A stretch of 64,000 bases of DNA from Myxococcales bacterium (GTDB lineage: Bacteria; Myxococcota_A; UBA9042; JABWCM01; BTVJ01). The notes under the pieces were generated by a model. That model was not told the DNA's origin and ran no database searches. It worked only from the letters and a program-made list of their open reading frames with translations. The translations under genes were made by a program, and so were the position numbers. Every line of letters starts with the position of its first letter. Position 1 is the stretch's first letter. The stretch spans positions 77,242 to 141,241 of the forward strand of contig BTVJ01000013.1 of assembly GCA_045863395.1 (NCBI GenBank), in the 5' to 3' direction. Positions 47,286 through 63,543 of this stretch are shown piece after piece.

Positions 47286-48500
47286 TCAGAGAGGCGTACC
47301 CGAGTCCGCGGCGGTGCGGTCGAGCTTCGCGAGCAGGGCGACCACCACCTTGGCGCCGATGGTGATTGCCCGGTCGTCCGCGACGAAGTGGCTGGAGTGG
47401 AGCTGGTGGACCGGCCCGTCGGTGCGCGTGCCCAGGCGGAAGAACAGCCCCGGCGCCTGGGTCAGGTACTCGGAGAAGTCCTCGCCGCCCATGCTGGCCC
47501 GGTCGATGGCGACCACGGCCTCGGGGCCCAGCGTGGCGCCGACGACCGCCTCGGCCGCTGCGCAGAGCCGCGGATCGTTGAGGATCGGCGGGGACCCCTG
47601 CTGGACGCGCATCTCCAGGGCCCCACCGGCAGGCTCCACCACGGCGCTCGCCAGCGTGCGCACCAGCTCCAGGGCCCGCGCGCGCATCACCAGGTCGAAC
47701 GACCGGCACGTGCCCGCCACCTCGGCCACGTCGGGGATCACGTTGGGCGCGCTCCCCGCGTGGAAGCGCCCGACGGTGATCACGAAGGGGTCCCGAGCAT
47801 CCATCATGCGCGGCAGGGTCGAGTAGAGCTCCGAGACCACGCGGGTCCCGAGCAGGATGGGGTCCACCGCCAGGTGGGGGCGCGCCGAGTGGCCCCCGCG
47901 CCCTCGGATCACGAGCTCGAAGGAGTCCACCGCGGCGGTCAGGGCCCCAGGCCGGAGCCCGACGCGGCCAAGCTCGATCTGGGGGTCCACGTGCAGCGCG
48001 GTGATGGCCCGAACCCCGGTCATGGCGCCATGCCGCACCATCTCGATGGCGCCGCCGGGCGCCACCTCCTCCGCAGGCTCGAAGATGAACCGCAGGTTGT
48101 GGCGCAGGCGCTCCCGGTGCGACGCGAAGACCAGCGCCGCCCCCAGGCCCACCGCCGTGTGCACGTCGTGGCCGCAGGCGTGCATCACCCCGGGGATCGT
48201 GCTGCGAGGCACCCGCGGGTCCTCCGACAGGTCGCTCAGGGGAAGCGCGTCGATGTCCGCCCGGTGGGCCACGAAGGGGGCGCCCTCCGCGGTGACCAGA
48301 TCCGCGATGAGCCCGGTCCCCGTGGGCCCGACGCGGCAGTCGTAGCCGGCGGCCTCCAGCTCACCGAGCAGCAGCGCGGTGGTCTCGGTCTCGGCCCACG
48401 CCGGCTCCGGGTGGGCGTGCAGCCGGTGGCGCACCTCCACGAGCCGCGGCGTCAGGTGGAGCAGCTCGGTGAGCAGCGGAGACAGCTCGCTCGGGGACAT
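47286..48500 (-). CDS. M20D-family amidohydrolase
   Basis: LHAHPE, RADIDAL, MHACGHD, FEPAEE, GGHSARPH and GGEDFS. Confidence 0.92.
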   Translation of the reverse strand: MSPSELSPLLTELLHLTPRLVEVRHRLHAHPEPAWAETETTALLLGELEAAGYDCRVGPTGTGLIADLVTAEGAPFVAHRADIDALPLSDLSEDPRVPRSTIPGVMHACGHDVHTAVGLGAALVFASHRERLRHNLRFIFEPAEEVAPGGAIEMVRHGAMTGVRAITALHVDPQIELGRVGLRPGALTAAVDSFELVIRGRGGHSARPHLAVDPILLGTRVVSELYSTLPRMMDARDPFVITVGRFHAGSAPNVIPDVAEVAGTCRSFDLVMRARALELVRTLASAVVEPAGGALEMRVQQGSPPILNDPRLCAAAEAVVGATLGPEAVVAIDRASMGGEDFSEYLTQAPGLFFRLGTRTDGPVHQLHSSHFVADDRAITIGAKVVVALLAKLDRTAADSGTPL

Positions 48501-48643
48501 CCTCACTCCTGTGGGGCCCGGTGGACCTCATTGGCGCGCTTGGGTGCGCAACCGGGGCGTGCTACAACGCACGACGGTCGGCGCCCCCGGGGACCTGCCC
48601 CAGCCCCCGCGTGCCCGGGGGGCCAAAGCCCCAAGGAGCGCCC

Positions 48644-50389
48644 ATGAAGCGCAGCTCGGCATGGTCCCTGGCGGCTGCCCTCGTGGCAGCATGTAGCAGC
48701 GTCTCCCCCGCGGTCAAGGACGAGGACGCGGGCGCACACGGCGCTGCGGACACACCGTCCGTCACGCCCGACGCTCCAGGCGCAAGCGCATCCGACGCAG
48801 ACACCCAAGGCGGGGATACGCCGGGGGCTGGCGCCGACGGGGGCGGCACGGAGCCGCCCCCCTGCGAAGCCCCGGGCGTCACCTCCCCCGCGTGGTATCA
48901 CGAGGCCGTCGGCTACGAGATCTTCGTCCGCAGCTTCCAGGACAGCGACGGGGACGGCATCGGCGACCTCGCCGGCCTGACGTCCCGCCTCGACTACCTC
49001 AACGACGGCGATCCGACCACGGACACGGACCTGGGCGTCACGCTCCTCTGGCTCATGCCCATCAACCAGAGCCCGTCCTACCACGGCTACGACGTCACCG
49101 ACTACCGCGCCATCGAGGAGGACTACGGCTCCCTCGAGGACCTGGACGCCCTGCTCGCGGCGGCGCACCAGCGAGGCATCCGCGTGATCATGGACCTGGT
49201 GCTCAACCACAGCTCCAGCCAGCACCCGTGGTTCAAGGACGCCGCCGCGGGCCCCGGCGCCCCGCTTCGCGACCACTACGTGTGGAGCGAGGTGTTCCTC
49301 GACTGGGACCGCCCGTGGGGCCCGGGCCCCACCTGGGTGAAGGCCGGCGCCTCCTGGTACTACGCCCTGTTCTGGGAGGGCATGCCCGACCTCAACTTCA
49401 CGAGCGCCGCCGTCCGCGCCGAGATGACCGACGTCGCCCGCTTCTGGCTGTCCCGCGGCGTGGACGGCTTCCGCCTCGACGCCGCCCGCTACCTGGTGGA
49501 GACGGGCCCTGGCCCCGGCCAGGCGGACACGCCGGAGACCCACGCCTTCTGGCGGGACCTGCGGGCCATGATGGACAGCGAGGCCCCGGGCTCCATGACC
49601 GTGGGCGAGGTGTGGGAGCAGACCTCCGTGGTGGTGCCCTACTACGGCACGGCGGCCTCCCCCGAGCTGCACATGCTCTTCGACTTCGACGGCGCCTCGG
49701 GAGCGCTCCAGGCCGTCTCCCAGGGCAAGGAGGCCGCGCTCCGCACCCGCCTCTGCAAGCGCCTGCGGGAGTACCCGCCCGACGCGGCCGTCGGCACCTT
49801 CCTGACCAACCACGACCAGGCGCGGGTCGCGACCGAGCTCGGCGACGAGGCGTCCCTGCGCCTGGCCGCCGCGCTGCTGCTGGGCCTGCCAGGCACCCCC
49901 TGGCTCTACTACGGCGAGGAGATCGGCATGAAGAGCGGCCCCGGCGGCGGCGACGAGCCGAAGCGCCTGCCCATGCAGTGGGGCCCCGGCGGCTTCAGCA
50001 CCGGCACGCCATGGAAGGCGCCGGCGTCCACGGAGGCGGCGGCGAGTGTCGCCGGCCAGACCAATGACCCGGGGAGCCTCCTGTCCTGGTACCGGCGCCT
50101 GATCCGCGAGCGCCAGGCGCTGCCCGCGCTGTCTCGCGGGGCCACGAAGCACATCGGCGCGACCGGCTCCGTGGGCGCTCCCCTCGTCGTCCTGCGGTCC
50201 CACGGCGACCAGGCCGCCCTGCTGGTCTACAGCTTCGCTTCCGTCCCCCAGGTGATCACGGTGGCACCCCCGCTCCCCGCCACCACCTTCACGGACCGAC
50301 TGACCGGGGCCACTCTGAGCCGCGTGGACGCCTCCGCTCCGCTGGAGGTCTCCCTGCCGGCGCGGGGCTTCGCCCTCCTCGTGCCCTGA
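48644..50389 (+). CDS. GH13 alpha-amylase-family lipoprotein
   Basis: SD AAGGAG; lipobox VAAC; YEIFVRSFQDSDGDGIGD, DLVLNH, MPDLN, GFRLDAA, GEVW and FLTNHD. Confidence 0.92.
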   Translation: MKRSSAWSLAAALVAACSSVSPAVKDEDAGAHGAADTPSVTPDAPGASASDADTQGGDTPGAGADGGGTEPPPCEAPGVTSPAWYHEAVGYEIFVRSFQDSDGDGIGDLAGLTSRLDYLNDGDPTTDTDLGVTLLWLMPINQSPSYHGYDVTDYRAIEEDYGSLEDLDALLAAAHQRGIRVIMDLVLNHSSSQHPWFKDAAAGPGAPLRDHYVWSEVFLDWDRPWGPGPTWVKAGASWYYALFWEGMPDLNFTSAAVRAEMTDVARFWLSRGVDGFRLDAARYLVETGPGPGQADTPETHAFWRDLRAMMDSEAPGSMTVGEVWEQTSVVVPYYGTAASPELHMLFDFDGASGALQAVSQGKEAALRTRLCKRLREYPPDAAVGTFLTNHDQARVATELGDEASLRLAAALLLGLPGTPWLYYGEEIGMKSGPGGGDEPKRLPMQWGPGGFSTGTPWKAPASTEAAASVAGQTNDPGSLLSWYRRLIRERQALPALSRGATKHIGATGSVGAPLVVLRSHGDQAALLVYSFASVPQVITVAPPLPATTFTDRLTGATLSRVDASAPLEVSLPARGFALLVP

Positions 50390-50396
50390 AGCACGC

Positions 50397-52067
50397 TCAC
50401 TTCGCGAGCTTCCACGACGTGATCTTGGAGGTCACGTTGTCCACCGCCCACAGGAGCCCACCCGGCCCCGGAGCGACGCCCACCGGCGACACGAGCGTCC
50501 CTCCCCCCAGCTCCCGGGAGTGCTCCAGTGCCGGCGCCACCTCGGGCTCGCCGAAGGCGACGGGCACCCCCTCGCACAGGGCCCCGCAGGCCATGCTGCA
50601 CTCCTGGACACAGACGTCGTCCCAGCTCGCCTCGGGGTCATCCGCCGCGCAGCAGAAGGGGTCCATGGCGCAGACGCACTCCTGGCAGGCGCAGCCGTCG
50701 CACGTGACCGAGTCACGGGGCGCGCACCCTGCGCCGCCCTCCTCTCCCCCCGTGCACGCGCCCGCCTCGCAGGTCATGGTCGACAGGCACTGGCCGCAGC
50801 TCCCGCCACAGCCGTTGTCGCCGCACTCCTTGCCGGCGCAGTCCGGGATGCAGCTCCTGAAGAACTGGAGCCTCCCGTTGCCCGCGTCGGCCACCACGAT
50901 CCAGCCGTCGGGCGTCAGCGCAAGGCCGGTCGGGTACTTGAACATCCCGGCCTCGCTGCCCTCTGCCCCGTAGACCCCCACCACCTTCGCCGTGGCGGGA
51001 TCGAAGGCCTGGATGCGCCCGTTCTGGTTGTCGGCGACGATGACGAGGCCGCCGGCCGTCTGGATGACCCCCCGCGGGTCCCGGAAGTGCCCCGGAGCGC
51101 TGCCGGTCTTGCCCAGGCTCTGGCCCAGCTTCGTGTCGTCCAGGTCCACGCGCAGCACCTCGTTCTTGCCGGTGTTGGCGATCCAGAGCCCCGCCCCGAG
51201 GGCCGCCGGCGCGATGTAGGTCGGGCTCTGGAGCAGCGTCCCGTCGCCGGGCTTGCCGTCGAAGGCCCCCACCCACTCGCCGTCCGCGGTGAAGATGGCG
51301 ATGCGGCCGTTGCCCGTGTCTGCCACGGCGACGCGGCCGTCCGCGAGCACCGCCACACCCACGGGCTGGGAGAGCTGACCGTCGCCACCGCCCTTGCCCC
51401 CCCACGCGCCGGCGGGGGTGCCGTCCGCCTCGAAGAGGGCGATGCGGTCATTCCCCGTGTCCGCCACGAGCACACGCCCGCCTGCGACCGCGACGCCCCG
51501 CGGGTCCTTGAGCTGCCCCTCGCCCGCGCCCTTCTCGCCGAAGCTCGCGCCGTCCACCGCGCAGGGACCGCCCGGGTTCTTGCAGACGCCGGTCGCCACG
51601 GTGCAGGTGTCGGTGGTGCACGCGAGGCCGTCGTCGCAGTCCGCGTCCGAGGTGCAGCAGCCTGGCAGCCCGCTCGGGCCATGGGCGCAGGCTCCGCTCG
51701 CCCCGTCGCACCAGTCCCGGGTGCAGGGGTCGTCGTCGTCGCAGAGCGTGTTCGCCAGGGTCTCGCACGCCCCGGCCTTGCACCCGTCGCCGGTCGTACA
51801 GGGGTCACCGTCGTCGCACTCCATGCCGTCGACCCACGCGCTCCCGTCGGCGAGGCAGGTGCGCACTCGCGTCCCCTCGCACGTGGCCGCGCCCGGCTGG
51901 CAGGCGAGGCAGGCGCCCGTCGCCTTGTCGCACACCTGCCCTGCTCCGCAGTCCCCGTCCAAGCTGCACCCGCCCTTGCCCGTGTCGGCTGTGGCGGCAG
52001 GCTCACCACCGGTGGAGCCCGCGTCGCAGGCGGCCAGAAGTGCCACGAGGATCAATCGAGAGGTCAT
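50397..52067 (-). CDS. NHL-repeat beta-propeller lipoprotein with Cys-rich repeats
   Basis: Lipobox LAAC; CDDGDPCT repeats; NHL blades PRGVAV...VADTGNDRI; CIPDCAGKECGDNGCGGSCG module. Confidence 0.82.
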   Translation of the reverse strand: MTSRLILVALLAACDAGSTGGEPAATADTGKGGCSLDGDCGAGQVCDKATGACLACQPGAATCEGTRVRTCLADGSAWVDGMECDDGDPCTTGDGCKAGACETLANTLCDDDDPCTRDWCDGASGACAHGPSGLPGCCTSDADCDDGLACTTDTCTVATGVCKNPGGPCAVDGASFGEKGAGEGQLKDPRGVAVAGGRVLVADTGNDRIALFEADGTPAGAWGGKGGGDGQLSQPVGVAVLADGRVAVADTGNGRIAIFTADGEWVGAFDGKPGDGTLLQSPTYIAPAALGAGLWIANTGKNEVLRVDLDDTKLGQSLGKTGSAPGHFRDPRGVIQTAGGLVIVADNQNGRIQAFDPATAKVVGVYGAEGSEAGMFKYPTGLALTPDGWIVVADAGNGRLQFFRSCIPDCAGKECGDNGCGGSCGQCLSTMTCEAGACTGGEEGGAGCAPRDSVTCDGCACQECVCAMDPFCCAADDPEASWDDVCVQECSMACGALCEGVPVAFGEPEVAPALEHSRELGGGTLVSPVGVAPGPGGLLWAVDNVTSKITSWKLAK

Positions 52068-52208
52068 CGGCGCCGCTCCAATCGGGCCCACCGGGGGCCG
52101 TTTTTTTGACAGGGTCCGGAGTGTCTGCAACAACCATGGCGTCGCGAGAGGCGAACCCGGGCAGCCGCGCCGGCCGCCCCTGTCGCCTGCTCAGGAGCGA
52201 GTCTAGCA

Positions 52209-54521
52209 TTGCAGAAGATCTGCCGCACATGCCGCAGGGTCTTCGGGGCTTCGGAGCAGTTCTGCCCCGACCACCAGGGCTACCTGGTCCTGCACTCCCT
52301 GGTGGGCGATCTGCTGCTCGGACGCTACCGGGTCACCGAGGTGGTGGGCGCGGGCCTCGACGCCCTTGTGTGCCGCGGCGTCGATGAGCAGCTCGGCTAC
52401 AAGGTGGCCGTCAAGGCCCTGCTCCTGGATCCGGACGGCTACCGCTACGTGGTGAACCGCTTCCTGCGCGAGGCAGAGACCTACGCGGCGCTGAGCGACC
52501 CCCGGTTCCCCCGTGTGTTCGCGCGCAACATGCTCCAGGATGGACGCCCCTACTTCGTCTTCGAGTGGGTCGACGGCGAGTCGCTCGAGGACACCCTCGG
52601 CAAGGAGGGCCGCCTGATCGCGCCGCAGGCGGTCCGGCTCGCCATGGAGGTGGCGGCGGGGCTCCAGCAGGCTCACGCGCTCGGCTTCGTGCACCTGGAC
52701 GTCACCCCCGGCAACATCCTCCGCTACCAGGACGCCACCCGCACCGAGCACATCAAGATCATCGACTTCGGCATCGTCCGGCTCACGCCAGCTGCCGACG
52801 GGCCCAGCCAGCGCTTTCGTCGCCCGCTGGGCAACCCGCCCTACATGAGCCCCGAGCAGTGGCGACGCCAGGAGCTGGACCCTCGCACCGACGTGTGGTC
52901 GCTGGGCGTGACGCTCTACGAGCTGCTCTCCGGGCGGCTGCCCTTCGGCGACGACGACTGGGAGGCGGTGCGCCGCCGGGTCCTGCACGATCCGCCGCCC
53001 CCCCTGCGCTCTCGGGTTCCCGAGGACGGGATCCCCGTGCACATCCCAGACGCCCTCGAGGAGCTGGTGATGAGCATGATCGATAAGGATCCGGATCGGC
53101 GCCCCCGGTCCATGCTCGATGTGCACCTGGCGCTCCGCTCCCTGCTCAAGGAGCTCGAGCCGGACGCCTTGCCCTACGCGCGCTTCCTGCGCTGCTTCGA
53201 CGAGCCCCTGCTCGACGTCGGGGCGCCCGGGGCGGCCAACGACGACGGCGCCGACGGCCTGGCGCTCGATGCTGGCTCCGGCGCCGAACCCCGGGGCCCG
53301 GCGGACACGTGGTTGGACGCACCGCCGCTGGTGCCGGCCTCTGACACCGAGACCGACCTGCCCGCAGCCCTACCCGAGGCGGTACACTATCGCGCTCACG
53401 ACACGACGGAGTCGCCAGCCTGGGGGTGGACCCCCCCAGACGTGGACGGGCCCACCGACCCGCGGGGGACGTCACTCGACCAGGACGCCATCCTGGAGAT
53501 CCGCTCGTTGAGTGACGCCCCGCCACCGTTGCCCCCCGATGGAGAGCCGGACGACGCCGAGGAGCTCGACGACTTCGAGGCGGCCACGTTCGACTGCGAC
53601 GCAGGCGATCTGACGCCGGCCGGCCCCTGGGCCGGTGACGACTCGGAGGCCGCGGGCGCGAACCACGAGGCCTCGTTCACGCCTCCCCAGGCCGAGCCCA
53701 GGATGGCCGACGTAGCCCGCTCCAGCCTCGACGTGGCCTGGGCTCTCGCGTCCGGGCCGCTCGCCGCGTGGCCCGAGCGCCCCGGTGGTGACGACCTGCA
53801 CGAGCGCGACACGGACCCGGGCCCGGTCGCTGATCCGGACGATGGCTTGGCAGCGCCCCCTCCTGGCCCGGCTCCGACCCTTCGGAGCATCTCCGTGCCG
53901 GCGGACGACTGCTCGCAGGTCGTCTCCGCAGACCCACCGCCCCGGACCCGCGACGCGGACCGCAACGGGGGCCGCTGGTCGGACCGCCAGCTAGGCGCGG
54001 CGGTCGTCGCGTCCTTCGTCGGCGTCGGCGCGGCCATCCTGATCGTGCTCAGCGGCACGGGGCCGCTGCCAGTGCCCGGATCTGCGCCCCTCGTCGCCGC
54101 CGGCGTGGCACCGTCGCGCCCCGCAGCGCCCCGCGCCCCGTCGGGCGGGACCGTGGTGCTGGGCCACGCCCCCTTGGATCGGCGGACGGAGGCTGCGGCG
54201 GAGCCCACTCCGTCGCCGAGGCGGGCACCAGCCGTGGAGGCTGTGGCGGTAGCACTTGCGGACGTCTCACCGAGGCTCCCACCCGCGGCGGCCGGCCCGG
54301 GCGGCGCTTCCCCGGCCCCCACCCGCGCACGGTCCGGCGCGACGGCCTCGGGCGGCAGGTCCGCACACCCCGCCGGCGCCCCGAAGGCGCCTGCGCGCGC
54401 CAGCACCGGCCGGACCGAGCGCAAGGCGGCCGCCGTCGCGGTGAGGAGGCCGGCCGCCTCCGCCACGACCGAGTTCCGCCCGGCGCCGGGAGTCTCGGAT
54501 CGCTACTTCCCGACCTTCTGA
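52209..54521 (+). CDS. Membrane Ser/Thr protein kinase with N-terminal zinc ribbon
   Basis: TTG start with SD AGGAG; CRTC...FCPDH; VAVK, HLDVTPGN, DFG, PYMSPEQ and DVWSLG; acidic linker, TM helix (AAVVASFVGVGAAILIVL), Pro/Ala-rich tail. Confidence 0.88.
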   Translation: MQKICRTCRRVFGASEQFCPDHQGYLVLHSLVGDLLLGRYRVTEVVGAGLDALVCRGVDEQLGYKVAVKALLLDPDGYRYVVNRFLREAETYAALSDPRFPRVFARNMLQDGRPYFVFEWVDGESLEDTLGKEGRLIAPQAVRLAMEVAAGLQQAHALGFVHLDVTPGNILRYQDATRTEHIKIIDFGIVRLTPAADGPSQRFRRPLGNPPYMSPEQWRRQELDPRTDVWSLGVTLYELLSGRLPFGDDDWEAVRRRVLHDPPPPLRSRVPEDGIPVHIPDALEELVMSMIDKDPDRRPRSMLDVHLALRSLLKELEPDALPYARFLRCFDEPLLDVGAPGAANDDGADGLALDAGSGAEPRGPADTWLDAPPLVPASDTETDLPAALPEAVHYRAHDTTESPAWGWTPPDVDGPTDPRGTSLDQDAILEIRSLSDAPPPLPPDGEPDDAEELDDFEAATFDCDAGDLTPAGPWAGDDSEAAGANHEASFTPPQAEPRMADVARSSLDVAWALASGPLAAWPERPGGDDLHERDTDPGPVADPDDGLAAPPPGPAPTLRSISVPADDCSQVVSADPPPRTRDADRNGGRWSDRQLGAAVVASFVGVGAAILIVLSGTGPLPVPGSAPLVAAGVAPSRPAAPRAPSGGTVVLGHAPLDRRTEAAAEPTPSPRRAPAVEAVAVALADVSPRLPPAAAGPGGASPAPTRARSGATASGGRSAHPAGAPKAPARASTGRTERKAAAVAVRRPAASATTEFRPAPGVSDRYFPTF

Positions 54522-55859
54522 GTGGTGGTGCACGTGGTCCAGCTCTCGCGCCAGTCGGCACTCGTCGCAGCGGTCCTCCTGCTCTCCGCGGGCGGCGCCG
54601 TAGCGCAGGTGCTCGAGGCGCCCGAGCTCACCCTGCGGCCGTCCGGGGACCCCGCCAAGGTCGACGAGTGCCGGCGCCTCACCGCGGAGGCCCGGTCCCT
54701 CTTCGACGCGCAGCTCTATGAGCAGGCGCTTGCCCGGAACCGTGAGGCCTACCTGGCCTACCGGGACCCGCGCCTGCTCTTGGGCATGGGCATCGCGGCC
54801 CAGGGGATCCCCGGCCAGGCCATCGACGCCATCCAATACTACGAGGCCTGCGAGGACGCCCTGGCGCGCATCGAGAGCCGCCTCCGGGAGGAGGCAGAGG
54901 CGGCCGGCGCCGAGGCGCGGACCCGCATCGACGAGGACCTCGCGGCGCTCACCAAGCACCGCGCGGACGTGCGCGAGGGCCTGGACGCGGTGCGCCCCTC
55001 CGTAGAGGCCGAGTGGGGCCGGGTCCCCATCGAGCTGTCCCCTGCGGACTCCGTGATCACCTTCAGCGGCCGCACCTATCCTCCGGTCGTCGCAAACCAG
55101 GCGGCGCGCTGGGTACCGCTCGGGACCCACCTGGTGGAGGTCACCGCCCGGGGGCACGCCATCTCTCGCCAGTGGATCACGGTGGGACCCGGAATGGAGC
55201 CCCTGCGAGTGCGCCTCGAGCCCGCTCCGGAGCTGAGGACGGGCGACATCCGCGTCCGGTGCGCCGTGCCAGGCTGCCGGGTGACCATCCGGGGGGAGGA
55301 CGCGACCAGCGCGCTCCAGAGCCCCTACCTCGTGGCGCCGGGCACCTACGACGTGGTGGTGACGGCTCCCGGGCTGGGCGACACGGTGCGCACCGTGACG
55401 GTGGACTCCGGGCAGTCGGTCTCGGTGGTCATCGGGCCGCCACCCGGCGTGACCATGGAGGCGCTCGCCCCGCCAAGACGACCGCCGGACCTCCCTGGCG
55501 TTCACACGTCCACGGGCGCCGGCTCCCCGGAGTGGACGCAGGCGGACACGGGCTGGACGCTGATCGGCGCAGGAGGCGCTCTCCTGCTCTCCGCAGCGGT
55601 CATGCACGGGGTGAGCTGGGAGCGCGCCACGTCGGTCAACGGGCGCGACGTGCGCTGTCCGGGCTGCTACGACGCGGCGCGCGCGGACTATGACGAGGCG
55701 AAGGGGGTCTACACCGGCGCCATCGTGGGGTACTCCCTGGGGGCGGCCTCTGCGGCAGCCGGCGTCCTGCTGATCGTCCTCGACGTGGACGACGAGCCTG
55801 TCCTCGGCGGCGGGCCGGTGGAGGGCGGCGGCCTCATCGAGGGGAGGTTCCGGTTTTGA
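54522..55859 (+). CDS. TPR-PEGA domain protein with C-terminal Gly-rich hydrophobic helices
   Basis: Starts immediately after the kinase stop; signal peptide; TPR-like helices; PEGA-like PLGTHLVEVTARG and VAPGTYDVVVTAPG; ends GRFRF. Confidence 0.75.
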   Translation: MVVHVVQLSRQSALVAAVLLLSAGGAVAQVLEAPELTLRPSGDPAKVDECRRLTAEARSLFDAQLYEQALARNREAYLAYRDPRLLLGMGIAAQGIPGQAIDAIQYYEACEDALARIESRLREEAEAAGAEARTRIDEDLAALTKHRADVREGLDAVRPSVEAEWGRVPIELSPADSVITFSGRTYPPVVANQAARWVPLGTHLVEVTARGHAISRQWITVGPGMEPLRVRLEPAPELRTGDIRVRCAVPGCRVTIRGEDATSALQSPYLVAPGTYDVVVTAPGLGDTVRTVTVDSGQSVSVVIGPPPGVTMEALAPPRRPPDLPGVHTSTGAGSPEWTQADTGWTLIGAGGALLLSAAVMHGVSWERATSVNGRDVRCPGCYDAARADYDEAKGVYTGAIVGYSLGAASAAAGVLLIVLDVDDEPVLGGGPVEGGGLIEGRFRF

Positions 55860-57409
55860 GACCCCACGCCCTGCTCCTGCTCGCGCTCTCCGCTTGCGCG
55901 TTCCCCGCCTTCGAGCCCGGCGGCGACGAGCCGGTCCAGGTGACCAGCGTCGTCGGCAACTCGCCCCTCGCCACCGACGACACCCCCGGCGTCTTCCGGG
56001 ACGGCATCGTCGTTCACGGCTCGGGCCTCGGCCAGGGCCTGGCGGCCGCCCTCCGGGCCGGCGAGCAGGTGACGCCCCTGGTGGTCCGGGTCGCCACTGG
56101 ATCCGAGGCGGAGCTGGTGCTCCCCGCCGATCTCGAAGAGGGCGCCTGGGACCTGACGCTGAGCCGGGGCTCCTCTGCAACCACCATCGCCCTGCGCTTC
56201 TCGCGCGGGCCGGCCGGCCCCGGTGGTGAGGCGGCCCTCGGCGGCTTCGTGACCCTCGCCGCCCTGGAGGGCGCTCTGCCGGACCCTGCCACCCTGGTCT
56301 CGGAGGGCGACGCCACCAAGACCTTCGTGCTCGCGACCGGTGGGCCGGACCTCTCCGCCTATGCGCCGGCGACCGCCCTCGATGGCCTCGCGACGACAGA
56401 GGCGGCCCTGGCAGCCTACGCCCACCGCGACGAGCTGCTGGACCCGGCCGGGTGGCCGACCAAGGAGGCGCTACTGGCTGCGTACGCGACGCCTGGAGAT
56501 CTCCCGGACCTCTCGAACGCGATCCTGAAGGCGGATCTGCCCGATACGAGCCCGTATGTCTCCAAGGAGGCGGCAGCAGCCACCATCGCCACCCAGGCAG
56601 ACGTGGAGGCAGCGCTCCAGGACAAGGCGACCATGGACGCCTCCTACCTGGCAAAGGACGGGACGCTGAGCGAGGCCCACGTCGCGCTCATCGAGGCCCT
56701 GGTCGGGCAGGCCCTGGCGGAGCTCCCCTGCCCAGCGGGGACGACGCCCGTCGGCGCGAGCTGCGTGTCCACCCACGAGGCCTCCGTGCGGGACAAGCCG
56801 TGCGCCTCGGGCGGGCAGACCTACGGCGCGTCCATCGACGACTACCCGAGCGGGTTCCCCGACAGCGGCGGCGGCGTGACCAAGCCGCTGTACGCGTGCA
56901 GCGGCCCAGGGGTGGCGCCGTCGCGCCATCTGACGTGGTTCCAGGCGGCGCGCGCCTGCGCTGCCTCAGGCCTGCGCCTCTGCACGGACGACGAGTGGCA
57001 GCGCGCGGTGGCCGGGACCGGCGACGAGGGCTGCGCCTTCGAGGGGGTGGGCCCGGTGACGTCGTCCGACGACACGGAGTGCGTCAGCAACCATGGCGTG
57101 GTCCACGGCCCCGGCAGCCTGGGCGAGTGGACGGCCACCTGGGCGCAGGGCGGCCTCGCCTGGGTGACCGAGCCCGGCCAGGTGAAGGCGCCCTGGCCGC
57201 TCGGGTACGGCGACGCGCAGGACACGGTCTCCGCCTGGAACGGGAGCGCGCTCTCCGGGGGCGCCTGGAAGAACGGGACGCCGGCGGCGGTGGTGCGCGG
57301 CGGCAGCTATGCGAGCGGCGCTGCCGGCGGCGCCTACGCCATGGACATGACCCGCTCTCCCGCCGAGAGCGCACCCGACGTGGGGTTCCGATGCTGCCGA
57401 AGCCGTTGA
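55856..57409 (+). CDS. Lipoprotein with Ig-like domain, repeat stalk and FGE-sulfatase/C-type-lectin-fold domain (paralogue 1)
   Basis: TTGA overlap with the upstream stop; lipobox LSAC; LTWFQAARAC, RLCTDDEW, VRGGSY and GFRCC. Confidence 0.8.
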   Translation: MRPHALLLLALSACAFPAFEPGGDEPVQVTSVVGNSPLATDDTPGVFRDGIVVHGSGLGQGLAAALRAGEQVTPLVVRVATGSEAELVLPADLEEGAWDLTLSRGSSATTIALRFSRGPAGPGGEAALGGFVTLAALEGALPDPATLVSEGDATKTFVLATGGPDLSAYAPATALDGLATTEAALAAYAHRDELLDPAGWPTKEALLAAYATPGDLPDLSNAILKADLPDTSPYVSKEAAAATIATQADVEAALQDKATMDASYLAKDGTLSEAHVALIEALVGQALAELPCPAGTTPVGASCVSTHEASVRDKPCASGGQTYGASIDDYPSGFPDSGGGVTKPLYACSGPGVAPSRHLTWFQAARACAASGLRLCTDDEWQRAVAGTGDEGCAFEGVGPVTSSDDTECVSNHGVVHGPGSLGEWTATWAQGGLAWVTEPGQVKAPWPLGYGDAQDTVSAWNGSALSGGAWKNGTPAAVVRGGSYASGAAGGAYAMDMTRSPAESAPDVGFRCCRSR

Positions 57410-58674
57410 AGGGCCTGCTCGGGGCGCTCGGGTCCGGAGCGCTCCTCGCCATGGAGCCGGCGACCCTCCTCGTCGGGGAGCCGGGCCCGCCAGGCGAGCC
57501 CCCTGACACCTCCGCCCTCGTGACGGTGGCTGCGCTCCAGGCGCTCCTCGACGAGGTCGATGCCCTGGTCACCACGGACGAGGCCGCGGAGACCTTCGTG
57601 CTGCCGAGCCAGCTCCCGGATCTCTCGGACAAGGTCCTCCTGGCCGAGCTCGACCTGTCGGGCTACCTGACGGTGGAGGCGCTGGCCGAGGGCTACGTCC
57701 CCGCGGGGCAGGTGCCGGACCTGGCGCTGTGGCTCTCGGCGACGGAGGCGGCGTCCCTCTACCTCCCGAAGTCCGCGTTCCCCTCCGCCGATGACCTGGT
57801 GACCGCGGCCGACCTGCCAGACACGAGCCTCTACCCGACGGCGGCCGAGCTCGCGGCGACCACGTTCACGAAGGACCAGCTCGCCGAGAAGTTCGTGACC
57901 AAGGCGGACGCGCTGGCCTTCGTGCCCCTGGGCGAGCTGCCGGACGGCGTGAAGGCCGAGGTCCAGGCGCTGATCGCGGCGCGCATCGCGGCCCTGAAGT
58001 GCCCACCGAACATGCTCCACGTGGCGGACTTCTGCATCGACCTCGTGGAGGCCTCCGTCTGGACGACGCCATGCGGCCAGGGCGGAGCCCAGCTCGGCGT
58101 CACGGAGGACGACTACGGCGCCGGCTTCCCCGACGCAGGCAGCTTCACGGATCCGCGGTACGCATGCCCGGTGGTGGGGGTGAAGCCCTCCCGCTTCATC
58201 ACCTGGTTTCAGGCGCAGCAGGCCTGCGCCCTCTCGGGCAAGCGCCTGTGCACGGACGCGGAGTGGCAGCTCGCCGCCCTGGGCACCCCCGACGGGGCCT
58301 GCGCGACGGGGGGAACCGACGTGGTCCCCACGGCATCGAAGGGGGGGTGCAAGAGCGACCTGGGCGCCCGAGACATGGTGGGCAATGCCCGTGAGATGGT
58401 CGCCGAGCTCCGCCAGGGCGGCCCCTACTGGAAGAACAACAACGGCGACGCCACGACGGACTGGCCGGCTGGCTACGGCGACGGGCAGGACGCGGTGCGC
58501 GGCGTCAATGGCACGACCTCGGAGCCCCAGAAGGCCGGCCTCCCCTCCATGACGCTGCGGGGCGGGGCCTACGGTGACGGAGAGGGTGCGGGGGCCTTCG
58601 CCATCGCCCTCGACGCCGCCCCGACCCACGCGGACCAGCGCACCGGGTTCCGCTGCTGCAGGAGCATGCGATGA
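57406..58674 (+). CDS. Repeat-stalk protein with FGE-sulfatase/C-type-lectin-fold domain (paralogue 2)
   Basis: C-terminal part of track ORF 56452..58674. TTG 57406 forms a TTGA overlap (alternative ATG 57391). GEPGPPGEP, ITWFQAQQAC, KRLCTDAEW, DMVGNAREM, LRGGAY and GFRCC. Confidence 0.8.
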   Translation: MKGLLGALGSGALLAMEPATLLVGEPGPPGEPPDTSALVTVAALQALLDEVDALVTTDEAAETFVLPSQLPDLSDKVLLAELDLSGYLTVEALAEGYVPAGQVPDLALWLSATEAASLYLPKSAFPSADDLVTAADLPDTSLYPTAAELAATTFTKDQLAEKFVTKADALAFVPLGELPDGVKAEVQALIAARIAALKCPPNMLHVADFCIDLVEASVWTTPCGQGGAQLGVTEDDYGAGFPDAGSFTDPRYACPVVGVKPSRFITWFQAQQACALSGKRLCTDAEWQLAALGTPDGACATGGTDVVPTASKGGCKSDLGARDMVGNAREMVAELRQGGPYWKNNNGDATTDWPAGYGDGQDAVRGVNGTTSEPQKAGLPSMTLRGGAYGDGEGAGAFAIALDAAPTHADQRTGFRCCRSMR

Positions 58675-60011
58675 GCCGCAAGAGCGCAGCGCTGGCGCTG
58701 CTGCTGGCCGCGTGCGGGGACGCGTCCCCCGGGGGCGGGCAGGAGGCACTGGAGGCCCCCCTCGGGGCCCCCGTGCTCCAGGGGCCCGCAGGCCCACCGG
58801 CTGGGGAGGACGCGCTCTCGGCCTACGCAACGAAGGCAGACCTGGACGAGGCTGCGGCGGCCTACGCCTCCAAGCTGTCGTGGGGCGAGGCGGAGGGCCT
58901 GCTCACCCAGTCCGAGCTGCCGACCGCGGAGGCCCTGGATGAGCTCCTGGACGAGGCGGACCTCGCCGCCCTGGATGAGGCCATCACCATCGAGGAGGCC
59001 GACTCTCTGCTGGTCCCGTGGTCCCTCGTGCCCGATCCATCGCTGCTCATGCCAAAGGACGAGGCCGCCAAGACCTTCGTCCTGGCGGCGACTGCACCCG
59101 ACTACGATGCCTGGGCCAGGAAGTCCGACCTGGCGGTGTGGGACACGCTGCTGACCCAGGCGGAGGCGGACGCCCTCTACCCGTCGGCCGCCGCGATCAC
59201 CGACACGCACTACTCCAAGGTGGCGGCCTCGCAGACCTTCCAGGGGGCGTTCGAGCCCCTGTCGCCCGCCCTTCGTGCCCAGGTGGAGGCGGTCGTGGAC
59301 GCGGCGCTGGCACAGCCCCCCTGCGCGGACGGCATGGTCGCCGTGGGGGACGTGTGCGTCGACCGCTTCGAGGCATCCGTGTGGTCGCAGCCATCCTGTG
59401 CCGGCGTGCAGTACGGGGTCACGAGCGACGACTACCCACCGTCCTTTCCCGACTCGGGTGCGTTCTCGGGCCCCCCTGTCTTCGCGTGCAGCCTCCCCGG
59501 TGTGCGCCCCTCCGCCCACCTGACGTGGTTCCAGGCGGATCAAGCCTGCGCCGCCTCGGGAAAGCGCCTCTGCTCCCTCGCCGAGTGGCAGGCAGCCGCC
59601 GCCGGCACGCCGGACGATCCGGCGCTGTGCCGCATCGACCCGTTCGCCGGGCAGAGCGCCGTCATCGACGCGGCCACGGGCTGCGTGAGCGCGTGGGGCG
59701 CGGCCGACATGGTGGGCAACGTCGCGGAGTGGACCGCGACGCTGCGCGTGGTGGGCAAGAAGTGGGTCCAGGGCAGCGAGTCGACGCAGACCACGCCCTG
59801 GCCCTTCGCCGACGACGCGACCGCGGGGGTCAACGGCTACGGGGCCATGGACGCCCAGGATGGCAACTTCGTGAAGGGGAGCCCGGTGGCGGTGGTGCGA
59901 GGGGGCAGCTACCTGGACGGGGCGGCGGCCGGGGTGTTCGCCATGGACTGGACCCGCTCACCGGCCGACGTCGCCTCGACCCTCGGCTTCCGCTGCTGCG
60001 CCAGTCGCTGA
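58671..60011 (+). CDS. Lipoprotein with repeat stalk and FGE-sulfatase/C-type-lectin-fold domain (paralogue 3)
   Basis: ATGA overlap; lipobox LAAC; LTWFQADQAC, KRLCSLAEW, DMVGNVAEW, VRGGSY and GFRCC. Confidence 0.82.
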   Translation: MSRKSAALALLLAACGDASPGGGQEALEAPLGAPVLQGPAGPPAGEDALSAYATKADLDEAAAAYASKLSWGEAEGLLTQSELPTAEALDELLDEADLAALDEAITIEEADSLLVPWSLVPDPSLLMPKDEAAKTFVLAATAPDYDAWARKSDLAVWDTLLTQAEADALYPSAAAITDTHYSKVAASQTFQGAFEPLSPALRAQVEAVVDAALAQPPCADGMVAVGDVCVDRFEASVWSQPSCAGVQYGVTSDDYPPSFPDSGAFSGPPVFACSLPGVRPSAHLTWFQADQACAASGKRLCSLAEWQAAAAGTPDDPALCRIDPFAGQSAVIDAATGCVSAWGAADMVGNVAEWTATLRVVGKKWVQGSESTQTTPWPFADDATAGVNGYGAMDAQDGNFVKGSPVAVVRGGSYLDGAAAGVFAMDWTRSPADVASTLGFRCCASR

Positions 60012-60022
60012 TCGCGTGAACC

Positions 60023-60721
60023 CTACCGCTTCGCGATGACGAGGCGGCGGAAGGGACCCGCCCCCTCGCTGACGGTCTGGACCCGGGGGTCAGGGGACAG
60101 GGCGGCGTGGACCAGGCGCCTGTCGGCGGACGACATGGGGTGGATTCGGACGACCTTGCCCAGCCCAACGGCCTTGTTGGCCAGCTCCGCACCCACGCTC
60201 GCCATCACACGCTCTCGCTCGTCCTTGAGCCCTGCGATGTTCAAAACGACGCGAACAGGCTCCTCGGCGCGGTGGCTGAGCACGCGGCGAAGCAGATACT
60301 GGATGGCAGGGAGGGCCGGCTCCTCCCCGGTGGTGAGCACCGCGTGGTCGGCCGTATCGACGAGGAGCTCGACGGTCCCGTCCTGGTAGATGCCTCCGAC
60401 GCTCGCCTCGACGCCCATGCGCTGCAGGATGCCGCCCAACAGCTTCTCGCCCAAGCGCATGGCGTCCGTCCCTCCGAGGGGAGCCCCTTGATCGGGTCGG
60501 TCGGGTCGGTCGCCTCGCTCGCTCGCCGCACGCCGCCGGGGCCCGCCGAAGTCCTCGGGCGGGTGCGCCTCGAACACGCGGATACGCACCCGTCCGCGCT
60601 TCGCGAGGGCTGGGTCCTCGATCACCTCGTACCTCAGCCCCTTCGGCTCCACGAGGAGCTTGATGCACGCTGCGTGGACGGCGTCCCGCTCGGTCCTGGC
60701 CTCGAAGTCTGCGATGATCAT
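60023..60721 (-). CDS. jag: Jag/KhpB/EloR RNA-binding protein (Jag_N, KH-like, R3H)
   Basis: Directly downstream of yidC; R3H motif PMSSADRRLVHAAL...TVSEGAGPFRRLVI. Confidence 0.85.
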   Translation of the reverse strand: MIIADFEARTERDAVHAACIKLLVEPKGLRYEVIEDPALAKRGRVRIRVFEAHPPEDFGGPRRRAASERGDRPDRPDQGAPLGGTDAMRLGEKLLGGILQRMGVEASVGGIYQDGTVELLVDTADHAVLTTGEEPALPAIQYLLRRVLSHRAEEPVRVVLNIAGLKDERERVMASVGAELANKAVGLGKVVRIHPMSSADRRLVHAALSPDPRVQTVSEGAGPFRRLVIAKR

Positions 60722-60746
60722 GACGACTCCTGGGTGATGTGCAGGG

Positions 60747-62690
60747 TCAGTGGGCCGGCGCTTCCATCTTGCGCTTCAGCGCGTACTGCTGCGCGAGCGA
60801 CAGGATGGTGTTGACGAAGATGTACAGCACGAGGCCCGACGGCAGGAAGAGCATGAAGCCCGTGAACATGATCGGCATGATCCACATCATCATCTTGGCT
60901 TGCGCCGAGTCCATGGAGGTCGGCGTGAGCTTCTGCTGCACGAACATGGTCAGGCCGAGCACGAGGGGGAGCACGAAGTAGGGATCCGGCGCGGACAGGT
61001 CCGTCACCCACCCGAACAGCGGCGCCTGGTAGAGCTCCACAGAGTGATAGATGGTCTGGTAGAGCGCGATGTAGACGGGCATCTGCAGGAGCATGGGCAG
61101 GCAGCCCCCGAGCGGGTTGACCTTGTGGGTCTTGTAGAGCTGCAGCATCTCCTGGTTGAGCTTGGCCTTGTCGCTCCCGAACTTCTCCCGCAGCTTGTCC
61201 ATCTCTGGCCGCAGGAGCTGCATTCGCTGCATCTGTCCGAAGCTCTTCTGGGTGAGCGGCCACAGCAGCAGCTTGACGAGCACGGTGAGGATCACGATGG
61301 CGAGCGCCCAGGACGGGATGTAGTCGTGGGCGGTGCGCAGCACGTACAGCATGGGGACGGCGAGGAAGCTCAGGATGCCGAAGTCCAGCGCCTCGGTGAA
61401 GGTCTCGCCGGCCTGCTTGAGCATGTCGATGTCCTTCGGACCCACGTAGAGCCCGAAGTGGAACTGCACGCCGCCCCGTGAGCGCAGGGAGTCCCACGCG
61501 GCCTTCAGCTCCGCCTCGCGCGCCGGCTCCTTGGTGGCGGCGTCCGCGAAGGCGTCGGCGAGCTGCTTGGCATTGGCCCCCTCGCTGAGGCCCAGCTTGG
61601 CATAGAGCGCTGCACACCGCGGCAGGCCCGGGCGGTCGAGCCATGCGGGGCCGCACGGCGCCGCCGATCCGGACACGATGGTCGGCTGCGTGGCGTAGAT
61701 GCGGGCGGAGACGACGCCGATGCCCGTGGCCGACAGGGTGCACTGGGAGTTCGCCAGGTCCCGCGGCAGGGCCGCCACGGTGAAGTAGCGGGTGTCCACG
61801 CTGGCCCACCGCACCTGGCCCGGCAGCTCTATGGACTTGCCCTCCTTCAGGAGCGAGTGGAACTCCTCGCGCTCCACCTCGTCGCCGGCCATGCAGGAGG
61901 CGGCCTTCAGGTCAGGCCGTGGGGTGAACATCCCCCCCTCCTCGGCCTTGGGGTCCTGCCACCCATCTACGTGCATGACGAGCTGGGCCGTCACATCGGA
62001 CTTGCCGACGTTGTGGACGGCCAGCGCCATCTCGATGACGTAGCCCTGCGTGAACCTGTAGGTCTTCTCGATGAACACGTCGCCGGTCCAGGCCTTGGGG
62101 TCCGGCCACACCCAGGTCTGGGAGTCGTCGGTCTGCTCCACCAAGGTGAACTCGGGCCCCTGGCGCCAGGCGGCCAGCAATGTGGCGGCCTCGTCGGTGC
62201 CCTCGAGCCGCGTCCACTCGATGCGGAACGGGTAGAAGGCCGGGCTCCAGGTGCTCACCAGGTCCAGCGGGCCGGCTGCGAGCTTGTCCTCCGGGACGCC
62301 TGCGATGGGATCCCGCTGCTTCTGCTCATACTGGGGGTTCAGGAGCAGGAACCTGCCAAGGTTCGCCCCCGAGGACGAGAAGAACGCCCTGTACAGCGGA
62401 GGACGCTCGATGACGACCTCGGACGGGGTGCCCTGAGGGACCGTCACCGTGGTCGCGCCGGTGGGGACCGCTGCGGCGGCCGCGGGCTGGGGCGCAGCCA
62501 CGGGCGCGACCTCGCCGGGGAGCACCGGCGCTGGAGGTGGAGCTTCGGGTGTCGGTGATGCCCCGGCGGGGGCCGTGGTCTCGGGGGCTGCCACCTCTTC
62601 GGCGGCGACGTGCTGCCAGTTCACCACGCTCAGCCAGACGATGGCGAAGAGCGTGCTGACCACGAACACGAAGATGACGCGCTTCTCCAT
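60747..62690 (-). CDS. yidC: Membrane protein insertase YidC
   Basis: YVGPK, LDFG, WALAIVILTVLVKLLLWPL, VNPLGGCLPMLLQMP, WVTDLSAPDPY and PSGLVLY. Confidence 0.97.
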   Translation of the reverse strand: MEKRVIFVFVVSTLFAIVWLSVVNWQHVAAEEVAAPETTAPAGASPTPEAPPPAPVLPGEVAPVAAPQPAAAAAVPTGATTVTVPQGTPSEVVIERPPLYRAFFSSSGANLGRFLLLNPQYEQKQRDPIAGVPEDKLAAGPLDLVSTWSPAFYPFRIEWTRLEGTDEAATLLAAWRQGPEFTLVEQTDDSQTWVWPDPKAWTGDVFIEKTYRFTQGYVIEMALAVHNVGKSDVTAQLVMHVDGWQDPKAEEGGMFTPRPDLKAASCMAGDEVEREEFHSLLKEGKSIELPGQVRWASVDTRYFTVAALPRDLANSQCTLSATGIGVVSARIYATQPTIVSGSAAPCGPAWLDRPGLPRCAALYAKLGLSEGANAKQLADAFADAATKEPAREAELKAAWDSLRSRGGVQFHFGLYVGPKDIDMLKQAGETFTEALDFGILSFLAVPMLYVLRTAHDYIPSWALAIVILTVLVKLLLWPLTQKSFGQMQRMQLLRPEMDKLREKFGSDKAKLNQEMLQLYKTHKVNPLGGCLPMLLQMPVYIALYQTIYHSVELYQAPLFGWVTDLSAPDPYFVLPLVLGLTMFVQQKLTPTSMDSAQAKMMMWIMPIMFTGFMLFLPSGLVLYIFVNTILSLAQQYALKRKMEAPAH

Positions 62691-62726
62691 CGGCTCCTGC
62701 GCTCCCTCGAAGGGCTGTCCGGCGTG

Positions 62727-63044
62727 TCACGGGACCGGGTCGTCGCCGCCCTCGCTCCAGGGGTGGCAGCGGGCGATGCGGCGCACCGCGAGCCAGAGGC
62801 CCCGCAGCCCGTGCCGCCTCACCGCGGCGAGCCCGTATGCGGAGCACGTCGGCGTGAAGCGGCACGCCGGCGGCAGCCAGGGCGACACGACGTTGCGATA
62901 GAACAAGATGAGCAGCTCGACGGGCCACAGGAGCGCCCGCTCGATGCGGCTCGGCTCAGGGCGCCTGCGGGGACCCTCCGGCGCTCCCCCGGTCTCGTGG
63001 CGCGCCGCCTCGCTGGTGCCGGTCGGGTGGCCGTCGCAGTGCAT
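62727..63044 (-). CDS. yidD: Membrane protein insertion efficiency factor YidD
   Basis: [22 protein letters not shown]...[17 protein letters not shown]; synteny. Start uncertain. Confidence 0.92.
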
Positions 63045-63381
63045 GGCCCAGCTCCTCAGCGACCCCCTGCATGCTCAGCGACGAGGCGTCCGCCTGCTCG
63101 CCCGCACGGGGCTGCTTGGCGATGACCACCACGTCCTTCGCCGACCGAAACCAGCCGGGGTTGGTGCGAAACGCCTCCCGAACCAAGCGCCGGATTCGAT
63201 TTCGCACCACCGCGCCCCCGACCTTCCGGCTGACGGTCACGCCCAGTCGCGGCGCCTCCGCCTCGCTCTTCAGCACGTACACGATGAAGTGCTTCGTGAA
63301 GAGTCGCCGCCCCTGCTTGAGGGCGCCGACGAACTGGTGACGCTTCAGGAGCCGCGCGCTCTTCGGGAAGGCGAACCCCAC
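62956..63381 (-). CDS. rnpA: Ribonuclease P protein component
   Basis: [35 protein letters not shown] and DVVVIAK. Confidence 0.95.
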
Positions 63382-63393
63382 GGTGCCCCGTGG

Positions 63394-63543
63394 CTACTTC
63401 TTCGCCGTCTGGACGCTCAGGCGCTTGCGACCCTTCTTGCGGCGGCGCTTGATGACCTCGGCGCCGTCCTTCGTGGACATGCGCACGAGGAAGCCGTGCG
63501 TCCGCTTGCGGCTGGTGTTGCTGGGCTGAAAGGTTCTCTTCAC
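63394..63543 (-). CDS. rpmH: 50S ribosomal protein L34
   Basis: GTG start; (M)[43 protein letters not shown], 49 aa. Confidence 0.97.

Follow-up and report, generated by a model that had tools for sequence, protein, structure and literature searches.

A conserved kinase, PEGA and fibre gene cassette of one Myxococcota order and its possible assembly into a three-chain fibre with lectin-fold tips

Fibres with a C-terminal C-type lectin (CLec) domain are known from Mtd of a Bordetella phage (PDB 1YU0-1YU4) and from TvpA of Treponema (2Y3C). Mtd is listed among homotrimers with a beta-layer in the part of a survey cited here (PMC4786415). The Bdellovibrio mosaic adhesive trimer (MAT) proteins were described as phage-fibre-like trimers with tips of adhesive folds, among them Bd2740 with a C-type lectin tip; they are typically about 1,000 aa long, their tips are diverse, and some bear an S74 chaperone end, and the text of that paper uses neither the word "homotrimer" nor the word "heterotrimer" (PMC10769870). 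Here, five consecutive genes of a Myxococcales bacterium were studied in a 64,000-nucleotide stretch of contig BTVJ01000013.1 (assembly GCA_045863395.1), which is called the window below. They encode a Ser/Thr kinase-like protein, a PEGA protein and three paralogous fibre proteins, F1, F2 and F3. As judged from their sequences, it is on balance probable that F1, F2 and F3 assemble 1:1:1 into one lipid-anchored fibre with three different lectin-fold tips.

The three proteins appear to have the same tip fold as Mtd and TvpA, in the same position at the C-terminus of a fibre. In contrast to these proteins, they have neither a template of a diversity-generating retroelement (DGR) nor a hypervariable region, their tips contain 10 conserved cysteines, and they combine signal peptides and lipoboxes with three fixed paralogues and a chromosomal site among core genes. 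With the MATs, as far as the cited text describes them (PMC10769870), they share the phage-fibre-like, putatively trimeric type, tips of an adhesive fold and a cell of the deltaproteobacterial type. However, F1-F3 are 430-520 aa long, are lipid-anchored (F1 and F3), carry one tip family and belong to a kinase/PEGA cassette. No match to S74 or another MAT-type Pfam family was found in 27 family members; no direct search for MAT sequence homology was made. The fibres work like Mtd-type and MAT fibres and, by the features tested, are a member of neither group.

The beta-layer coiled coils of Tcar0761, OMP100 and a Streptococcus prophage tail fibre (2C3F) have the same hydrophobic-x-Thr/Ser-x-x-acidic nodes with short helices between them; the spacing in F1-F3 is 10 and 12 residues with Leu-Pro-Asp turns, however, instead of nonads, and those described in the cited part of the survey are homotrimers (PMC4786415). 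The same part presents beta-layers as elements built by three chains, frequent in fibres of phages and adhesins, and names SLH as the exception to the homotrimer among the solved cases. One exact match to (aliphatic or aromatic)-A-T-K-x-D was found, in F3. In virophage DSLV2, three consecutive tail genes of similar length were reported to give one heterotrimer; in contrast to the cassette, this system is viral, has a T4 gp37-tip-like fold and, according to the accessible part of the source, is without signal peptides, lipid anchors and a kinase (PMC12724248). Because of this precedent, a heterotrimeric arrangement is plausible but less novel. In the open full-text literature (most subscription papers and supplements lay outside the scope), neither a description of the cassette nor one of myxobacterial kinase and PEGA pairs or of a bacterial cell with a heterotrimeric fibre was found. 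Animal collectins and C1q have a collagen-type start, a trimeric stalk and a lectin-type head, and C1q is a three-gene heterotrimer. This likeness is an analogy only: F1-F3 have 2-3 collagen triplets and a head of the formylglycine-generating enzyme (FGE) type, not a classical CLec or gC1q head.

The cassette, its conservation and its loss

The features of the cassette, in coordinates of the window, are as follows.

52209..54521, + strand: Hanks-type Ser/Thr kinase-like protein, 770 aa (PF00069, 120.5 bits; alignment; tail composition)
54522..55859, + strand: secreted PEGA protein, at most 445 aa (PF08308, 30.5 bits; orthologue alignment)
55856..57409, + strand: fibre paralogue F1, 517 aa (lipobox Cys14; three Gly-X-Y triplets)
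56207-56728, + strand: F1 stalk, 174 aa
56729-57406, + strand: F1 Cys-rich FGE/CLec tip
57391..58674, + strand: fibre paralogue F2, 427 aa, or 422 aa from TTG 57406 (Cys-free hydrophobic signal peptide; three Gly-X-Y triplets)
57475-57999, + strand: F2 stalk, 175 aa
58000-58671, + strand: F2 FGE/CLec tip
58671..60011, + strand: fibre paralogue F3, 446 aa (lipobox Cys15; short tether; two Gly-X-Y triplets)
58782-59321, + strand: F3 stalk, 180 aa
59322-60008, + strand: F3 FGE/CLec tip

All five open reading frames (ORFs) had a coding-type GC content at third codon positions (0.89-0.94), and the gapless arrangement described in the original prediction was verified at the junctions TGA 54521/GTG 54522, TTGA 55856 and ATGA 58671. 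Translation of F2 starts at TTG 57406 or at the in-frame ATG 57391; of six F2 orthologues examined, four had a matching MLPK/MLS-type N-terminus. For the PEGA gene, a start further downstream is possible, at GTG 54528 or 54534. Overall identity to F1 is 38-39% among the fibre paralogues, and each of the three matches the PHROG tail family phrog_11262 (E 4e-7 to 4e-13).

The genome studied (G000; 8.77 Mb, 71% GC, an assembly of 186 contigs, 97% complete) is the sole member of its family, in an order that holds three genomes, G000, G001 and G002. In G002, which belongs to another family of the order (92% complete, 53% GC), the kinase, PEGA, F1, F2 and F3 genes were found in the same order and between the same neighbours, an NHL-lipoprotein gene and jag. 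In G001 (62% complete), a single contig carries jag and the NHL gene side by side, and the five cassette genes are absent from the site. Because jag joins the NHL gene directly, the five genes are absent as a block. Neither a fibre gene nor an orthologous kinase was found elsewhere in G001, a negative weakened by the 62% completeness of this genome. Thus, the three-gene arrangement, whose conservation the original prediction had proposed to check, is kept in G002 and lost whole in G001. The five genes behave as one cassette in both inheritance and loss, and this cassette is restricted to one order.

The stalk profile matched 2 of the 401 genomes sampled in the phylum, with three genes in each, and a kinase orthologue (E <= 1e-55) was found in 2 of 107 class genomes, which were again G000 and G002. 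Two further cases with F1, F2 and F3 on one contig (47,662 and 63,863 bases) and eight more pairings of different-class fibre proteins, or of a fibre and a PEGA protein, were inferred from matching contig sizes. No class was seen twice on any one contig, mostly on the same kind of inference. Among 223 loci from metagenome and genome scans, only L167 (G002:C147) was matched by the stalk profile, and the others were tip-only relatives. Free variation in paralogue number, which had been named as evidence against a joint assembly, was not seen for the stalk-bearing genes, but the same tip on other bodies varies from 1 to at least 5 copies.

The GC content of the cassette was 0.735 against 0.72 for its contig in G000 and 0.535 against 0.529 in G002, so that no foreign composition was seen. 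Tip-only matches were found at 38 viral loci (best E 3e-11), and no viral contig matched the stalk. A prophage or mobile tail-fibre locus was rejected on the grounds of native GC content, the same site in two families and viral matches to the tip only.

Fibre classes were compared in 27 proteins (10 F1, 7 F2 and 10 F3); self matches, P0137-P0139 (identical to G002 proteins) and the near-duplicates or fragments P0002, P0012, P0121, P0122 and P0125 were left out, and before any tree was built, each protein was placed in a class on its N-terminal architecture and on similarity. The stalk tree gave F1, F2 and F3 groups with support of 97/92, 95/91 and 100/100, and the tip tree, which contains several long branches, gave the same groups with support of 94/88, 78/79 and 97/97. 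Since both trees recovered the same groups, there was no sign of tip swapping. Judged from these trees, the three fibre genes are ancient, distinct and fixed classes.

The classes also differ in their anchors. Lipoboxes in F1 and F3 and the lack of one in F2 had been predicted, and this pattern, seen at Cys14 and Cys15, extended to the classes: a lipobox-like Cys, judged by eye, was present in 9 of 10 class-1 and 9 of 10 class-3 proteins, both exceptions being without the N-terminus, and a Cys before the stalk was present in none of the seven class-2 proteins. In contigs of four other runs, no insertion or deletion was found over the covered parts. Because of this and because 7 of 7 class-2 proteins are Cys-free, the missing F2 lipobox is real, and a frameshift or sequence error was rejected as its cause. 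In class 1 only, an additional domain of about 100 aa follows the lipobox and precedes the stalk; it gave hints of a beta-sandwich or Ig fold that are weak and below cut-off.

Stalks and tips of the fibre proteins

The degenerate repeats were present as predicted, but their stretch, estimated earlier at 130-170 aa, was somewhat longer: 174, 175 and 180 aa in F1, F2 and F3 when the first Gly and the first Cys of the tip are taken as its ends. Across the 27 proteins, stalk length is 173-178 aa in F1, 175-178 aa in F2 and 180-183 aa in F3, at a mean between-class stalk identity of 22-25%. A short collagen-like start was likewise confirmed, with three Gly-X-Y triplets each in F1 and F2, two in F3 and 2-3 in all 27 proteins, none of which matched Pfam Collagen PF01391. 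However, the argument for a trimer that had been drawn from it is weak: 2-3 triplets are too short, and a collagen triple helix was rejected as the trimerising element. For this reason, the argument rests on the beta-layer-like repeats instead. True collagen runs (PF01391) were found in single-gene relatives with the same tip, for example at L009.

The hydrophobic-x-Thr/Ser-x-x-acidic motif, which is of the N-cap type, was found 127 times in the 27 stalks, compared with 33 +/- 5 in 1000 shuffles (maximum 53). In an alignment-free comparison of the large-hydrophobic pattern over the last 100 residues, the best between-class correlation was obtained at zero shift (r 0.52, 0.52 and 0.62; next-best shift, r 0.30). 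The spacing of the thirteen nodes is 16,10,12,X,10,12,10,12,12,10,10,10,28 in every class, apart from scattered deviations by 1-2 residues. Segment X has 8-9 residues in F1, 11-13 in F2 and 15-16 in F3, values that depend on gap placement. Gap openings between classes numbered 2.0 per 100 columns in the stalk, at 23% identity, versus 2.8 in the tip, at 43%. In these patterns, the nodes resemble the beta-layers of trimeric phage fibres.

The stalk profile retrieved 791 proteins at E <= 0.001, and most of the best 150 are long and have many repeats. Considering that proteins with related repeats have 2-17 matched stretches over 237-3452 aa, the repeat number is normally free. Several of these proteins have phage tail domains. 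Among 52 stalk relatives in a Pfam scan, 13 matched a family of phage tails or baseplates (BppU_N, PTR, Phage_tail_C, Gp53-like_C, Gp10_C or SPP1_Dit), and 23 of 25 matched a PHROG family, mostly of unknown function. A search of PDB sequences with the stalk profile gave no solved structure; two weak OspA matches (E 0.19 and 9.3) were ascribed to chance. The ESM Atlas gave no usable feature match for the F2 stalk, and its structure rows had template modelling (TM) scores below 0.4. A model of the full-length F3 monomer from 9 sequences was uninformative (predicted local distance difference test, pLDDT, 35.6).

The Cys-rich FGE-type tip of the original prediction was borne out. F1, F2 and F3 scored 27.7, 33.7 and 39.3 bits against PF03781 (cut-off 23.3), and 27 of 27 family members matched this family at E <= 1. 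The F3 tip, the one tip modelled, gave a pLDDT of 90.0 and a predicted TM score of 0.89 from 121 sequences. The top five Foldseek matches of this model were Mtd variants (E 5e-8 to 1e-7), above EgtB and FGE. In VIA-align, Mtd scored Z 17.6-18.0 (best 1YU3: Z 18.0, root-mean-square deviation 4.2, 169 aligned), TvpA 17.4, CalU17 17.2, FGE enzymes about 14-15 and PorK/PorN complexes 14.6; Mtd and TvpA were thus tied within 1 Z, and Mtd stood about 3 Z above FGE. Viral matches of the tip were mostly tail fibres.

Each of the three tips contains ten conserved cysteines, none of which lies between RGG and GFRCC in F1, F2 or F3. The catalytic Cys pair of FGE is one that we take to lie after the RGG motif. 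Because no Cys is present between RGG and GFRCC, where the catalytic position is presumed, an active FGE is unlikely. When the last 260 nt of each fibre gene were compared by blastn with the 186 contigs, only the gene itself, its paralogues and matches of 29-73 nt were returned, and no DGR template was found. Among 16 closer orthologues, the equivalent of the DGR variable region was 70-73% identical, compared with 61-70% for the rest of the tip, and no hypervariable C-terminal region was seen. By these comparisons, the tips are conserved, not diversifying. Because the tip is conserved, at its C-terminal region at least as much as elsewhere, and has no DGR template, a role in prey or kin discrimination, which had been given as an example of what the fibre might do, found little support. 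FGE-sulfatase (FGS) domains are treated as ligand-binding modules in the cited part of one study (PMC7159879), and a modelled FGE/CLec fold would alone show no ligand.

The same tip type was found on other bodies in 15 of 107 class genomes, in 1 to 5 copies. At L005/L006:3-5554, at least five near-identical tandem secreted proteins carry it; their bodies are 92% and their C-terminal regions 63% identical, which looks like binding-site diversification as far as the sequences go. Five neighbouring genes with this tip type, a different N-terminal domain and mixed orientation lie near a kinase at L186:9344-16796 (G011:C18). In G000, a 1165-aa ORF with reverse transcriptase-like motifs and several FGE-domain genes were noted (C78:17780-21274; C18:147-2180; C162:4149-6302; C32:90-2678); these FGE-domain genes, some of them kinase-fused, have similar 3' ends resembling DGR-type targets.

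Kinase, PEGA protein and neighbouring genes

The kinase consists of an N-terminal Cys-rich knuckle, a kinase domain (aa 40-300), an acidic Pro-rich linker of about 270 aa, one membrane helix (aa 595-613) and a Pro/Ala-rich outer tail of 157 aa whose F-x-T-F ending is shared with the G002 orthologue. VAVK, H-x-D with its Asn, and DFG are present in the G000 protein, which is non-RD and has Thr at the usual catalytic-loop Lys. In the G002 orthologue (L167:10909-13575; G002:C147; 49% identical), Asn and Ala replace the catalytic Asp and Asn and the Gly loop is degenerate; Lys, Glu and DFG are retained. By its sequence, this protein is a probable pseudokinase. Because it has lost the catalytic Asp and Asn, phosphorylation signalling, the output that the original prediction had implied for the kinase, was ruled out as a general one.

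The second gene had been called a TPR-PEGA protein. PEGA was confirmed (PF08308 cut-off 20.8 bits), but the TPR part rested on inspection by eye of the helical N-terminal part, and no TPR family was matched at E <= 0.1 in Pfam or NCBIfam. The protein comprises a signal peptide, a helical part, PEGA-type beta domains and a C-terminal pair of Gly-rich hydrophobic segments, followed by a short tail ending in Phe; it is likely anchored in the outer membrane. With its last 120 aa, matches at 0.95 to unnamed clusters of Myxococcota were obtained. The PopA superfamily was dropped as a model for the C-terminus, since it had no support in PMC12228718.

A profile of this C-terminal hairpin retrieved 15 G000 proteins without a common Pfam name, for example at C8:110210-111373, C16:75869-76915, C33:42678-43952 and C5:137052-137927, and seven of the 15 adjoin a Ser/Thr kinase. 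Of the pairs of a kinase and a PEGA or hairpin gene, only the one in the cassette is followed by stalk-bearing fibre genes. Genes for hairpin-tailed helical proteins were also found upstream of single tip genes at L009:512-3412, L004:8165-10936 and L187:9057-12489. The tip protein of L009, which combines 15 collagen triplets with a beta-layer-like motif and a coiled coil, is a collectin-like single-gene form.

The 3' end of the cassette lies directly before jag, identified by R3H and Jag_N matches. The genes at 60023-63400 (- strand) are jag and, after it, presumably yidC, yidD, rnpA and rpmH, which is, we assume, the usual cluster near the replication origin. On the other side, the gene at 50397-52133 (- strand) encodes a lipoprotein-like product with Cys-rich repeats and NHL beta-propeller repeats, with 44-45% identity in G001 and G002; it lies beside jag or the cassette in both genomes and so marks this bacterial order. 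It was rejected as a part of the system, being retained in G001, where the cassette is absent. Further upstream (47286-50389) are an M20 peptidase gene (- strand) and an alpha-amylase-family gene with a lipoprotein-like N-terminus (+ strand), neither of which is present at the G002 site. In four metatranscriptome runs from two studies, 30 of 30 bins were covered, including the flanks; these data are contigs only, and DNA carry-over is possible. A promoter scan gave 0 sigma-70-type sites, and terminator-like sites numbered 2 against 1.0 expected.

Proposed assembly of the fibre and alternative explanations

The three-chain fibre gains indirect support from the three fixed classes, the synteny in G002, the block loss in G001, the shared register of the stalks and the anchorless class. 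A 1:1:1 composition is favoured because the repeat number is free elsewhere but fixed and shared across F1-F3, and because there are as many classes as chains in such a fibre and class 2 would need a partner for its attachment. The 13 repeat nodes would be beta-layers in which the three chains intertwine. F2 would be exported by an ordinary signal peptide and kept by co-assembly with lipid-anchored F1 and F3, and the class-specific segment X may impose a fixed bend or chain specificity. The PEGA protein in the outer membrane may hold or present the fibre, and the outer tail of the kinase may contact the PEGA protein and so couple the fibre to the cytoplasm, with the kinase acting as an active enzyme in G000 and as a scaffold in G002. 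Conserved tips suggest a conserved ligand, for example a polymer of the surface or matrix, or a self structure, and not fast-changing prey or kin antigens. A more detailed version is proposed tentatively: a domesticated phage-type fibre that is an obligate ABC heterotrimer on the surface of a bacterial cell, namely, a pseudo-symmetric alpha/beta coiled coil with two lipid-anchored chains, one free chain and a built-in bend, whose three distinct lectin-fold tips form a composite receptor that is connected, via the PEGA protein of the outer membrane, with a membrane kinase or pseudokinase.

Several points weigh against the 1:1:1 fibre. Among the strongest is that the homotrimer is the rule for fibres of this kind. 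Only three of the 27 stalks, each from class 3, contain the strict beta-layer consensus as given in the cited part of PMC4786415, the node columns were picked from a looser motif scan and by eye on the alignment, and owing to segment X the match between the chains is imperfect. Three homotrimers could also preserve length and register if all of them served as the same ruler, and an uncleaved helix at the N-terminus could hold F2. Pairs of a kinase and a hairpin protein are a generic module in this genome (7 of 15 hairpin proteins). The cassette is carried by only two whole genomes (2 of the 401 sampled in the phylum), and co-occurrences beyond these were inferred from equal-sized contigs and not from the DNA itself. 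A charge-complementarity score for hetero- versus homotrimers was lower for the heterotrimer, but it is biased by a self-correlation term and was not used.

The alternative that survives best, although it is rather unlikely, is that F1, F2 and F3 each form a homotrimeric fibre of their own, or mix freely into trimers, all of equal reach and under joint display or regulation by the kinase and PEGA genes. Homotrimers would be in line with what is usual among beta-layer fibres, Mtd and collagen-like proteins of bacteria; moreover, at one stalk segment each class maintains a length of its own, and the L009 single-gene form, downstream of a hairpin-protein gene, indicates that the tip works from one gene elsewhere. 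However, separate homotrimers leave it unexplained that there are three genes in both whole genomes with no class seen twice, that 12 of 13 internode spacings are matched across classes at 22-25% identity, and that class 2 is retained without a lipid anchor.

It is improbable that the trimer is a periplasmic or envelope strut, of fixed length to span an envelope layer and with tips whose ligand is part of the cell itself, for instance peptidoglycan, an envelope polysaccharide or a partner protein. This reading fits either chain composition and agrees with the strictly fixed stalk length, the conserved tips, the fixed chromosomal site beside jag and yidC, the structural FGE-fold envelope proteins among the fold matches (PorK/PorN) and the catalytically dead G002 kinase, but the closest folds are adhesin tips (Mtd and TvpA), the stalk repeat is common to phage tail proteins, and the cassette is dispensable in G001. 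That the tips are enzymes (formylglycine-generating or related) or DGR targets on plain N-terminal linkers is very improbable and was largely refuted, since the PF03781 and FGE/EgtB fold matches and the other FGE-type genes with the reverse transcriptase-like ORF of G000 are outweighed by the missing Cys, the higher Mtd score, the lack of a template repeat, the conserved variable-region equivalent and a stalk register too conserved for a plain linker.

The cassette is conserved and apparently undescribed, within the narrow range of one order. In the descriptions found, trimeric bacterial and phage fibres are homotrimers, and the sole heterotrimer found is viral. The cassette provides a defined case for the undescribed Myxococcota kinase and PEGA or hairpin pairs, with a likely cargo and a pattern of co-loss in hand. 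If F1, F2 and F3 do form one fibre, it would be a model for partner choice in pseudo-symmetric heterotrimers whose chains are only 22-25% identical; in the more detailed version above, it would be a bacterial counterpart of the C1q/collectin-type architecture, wired to signalling.

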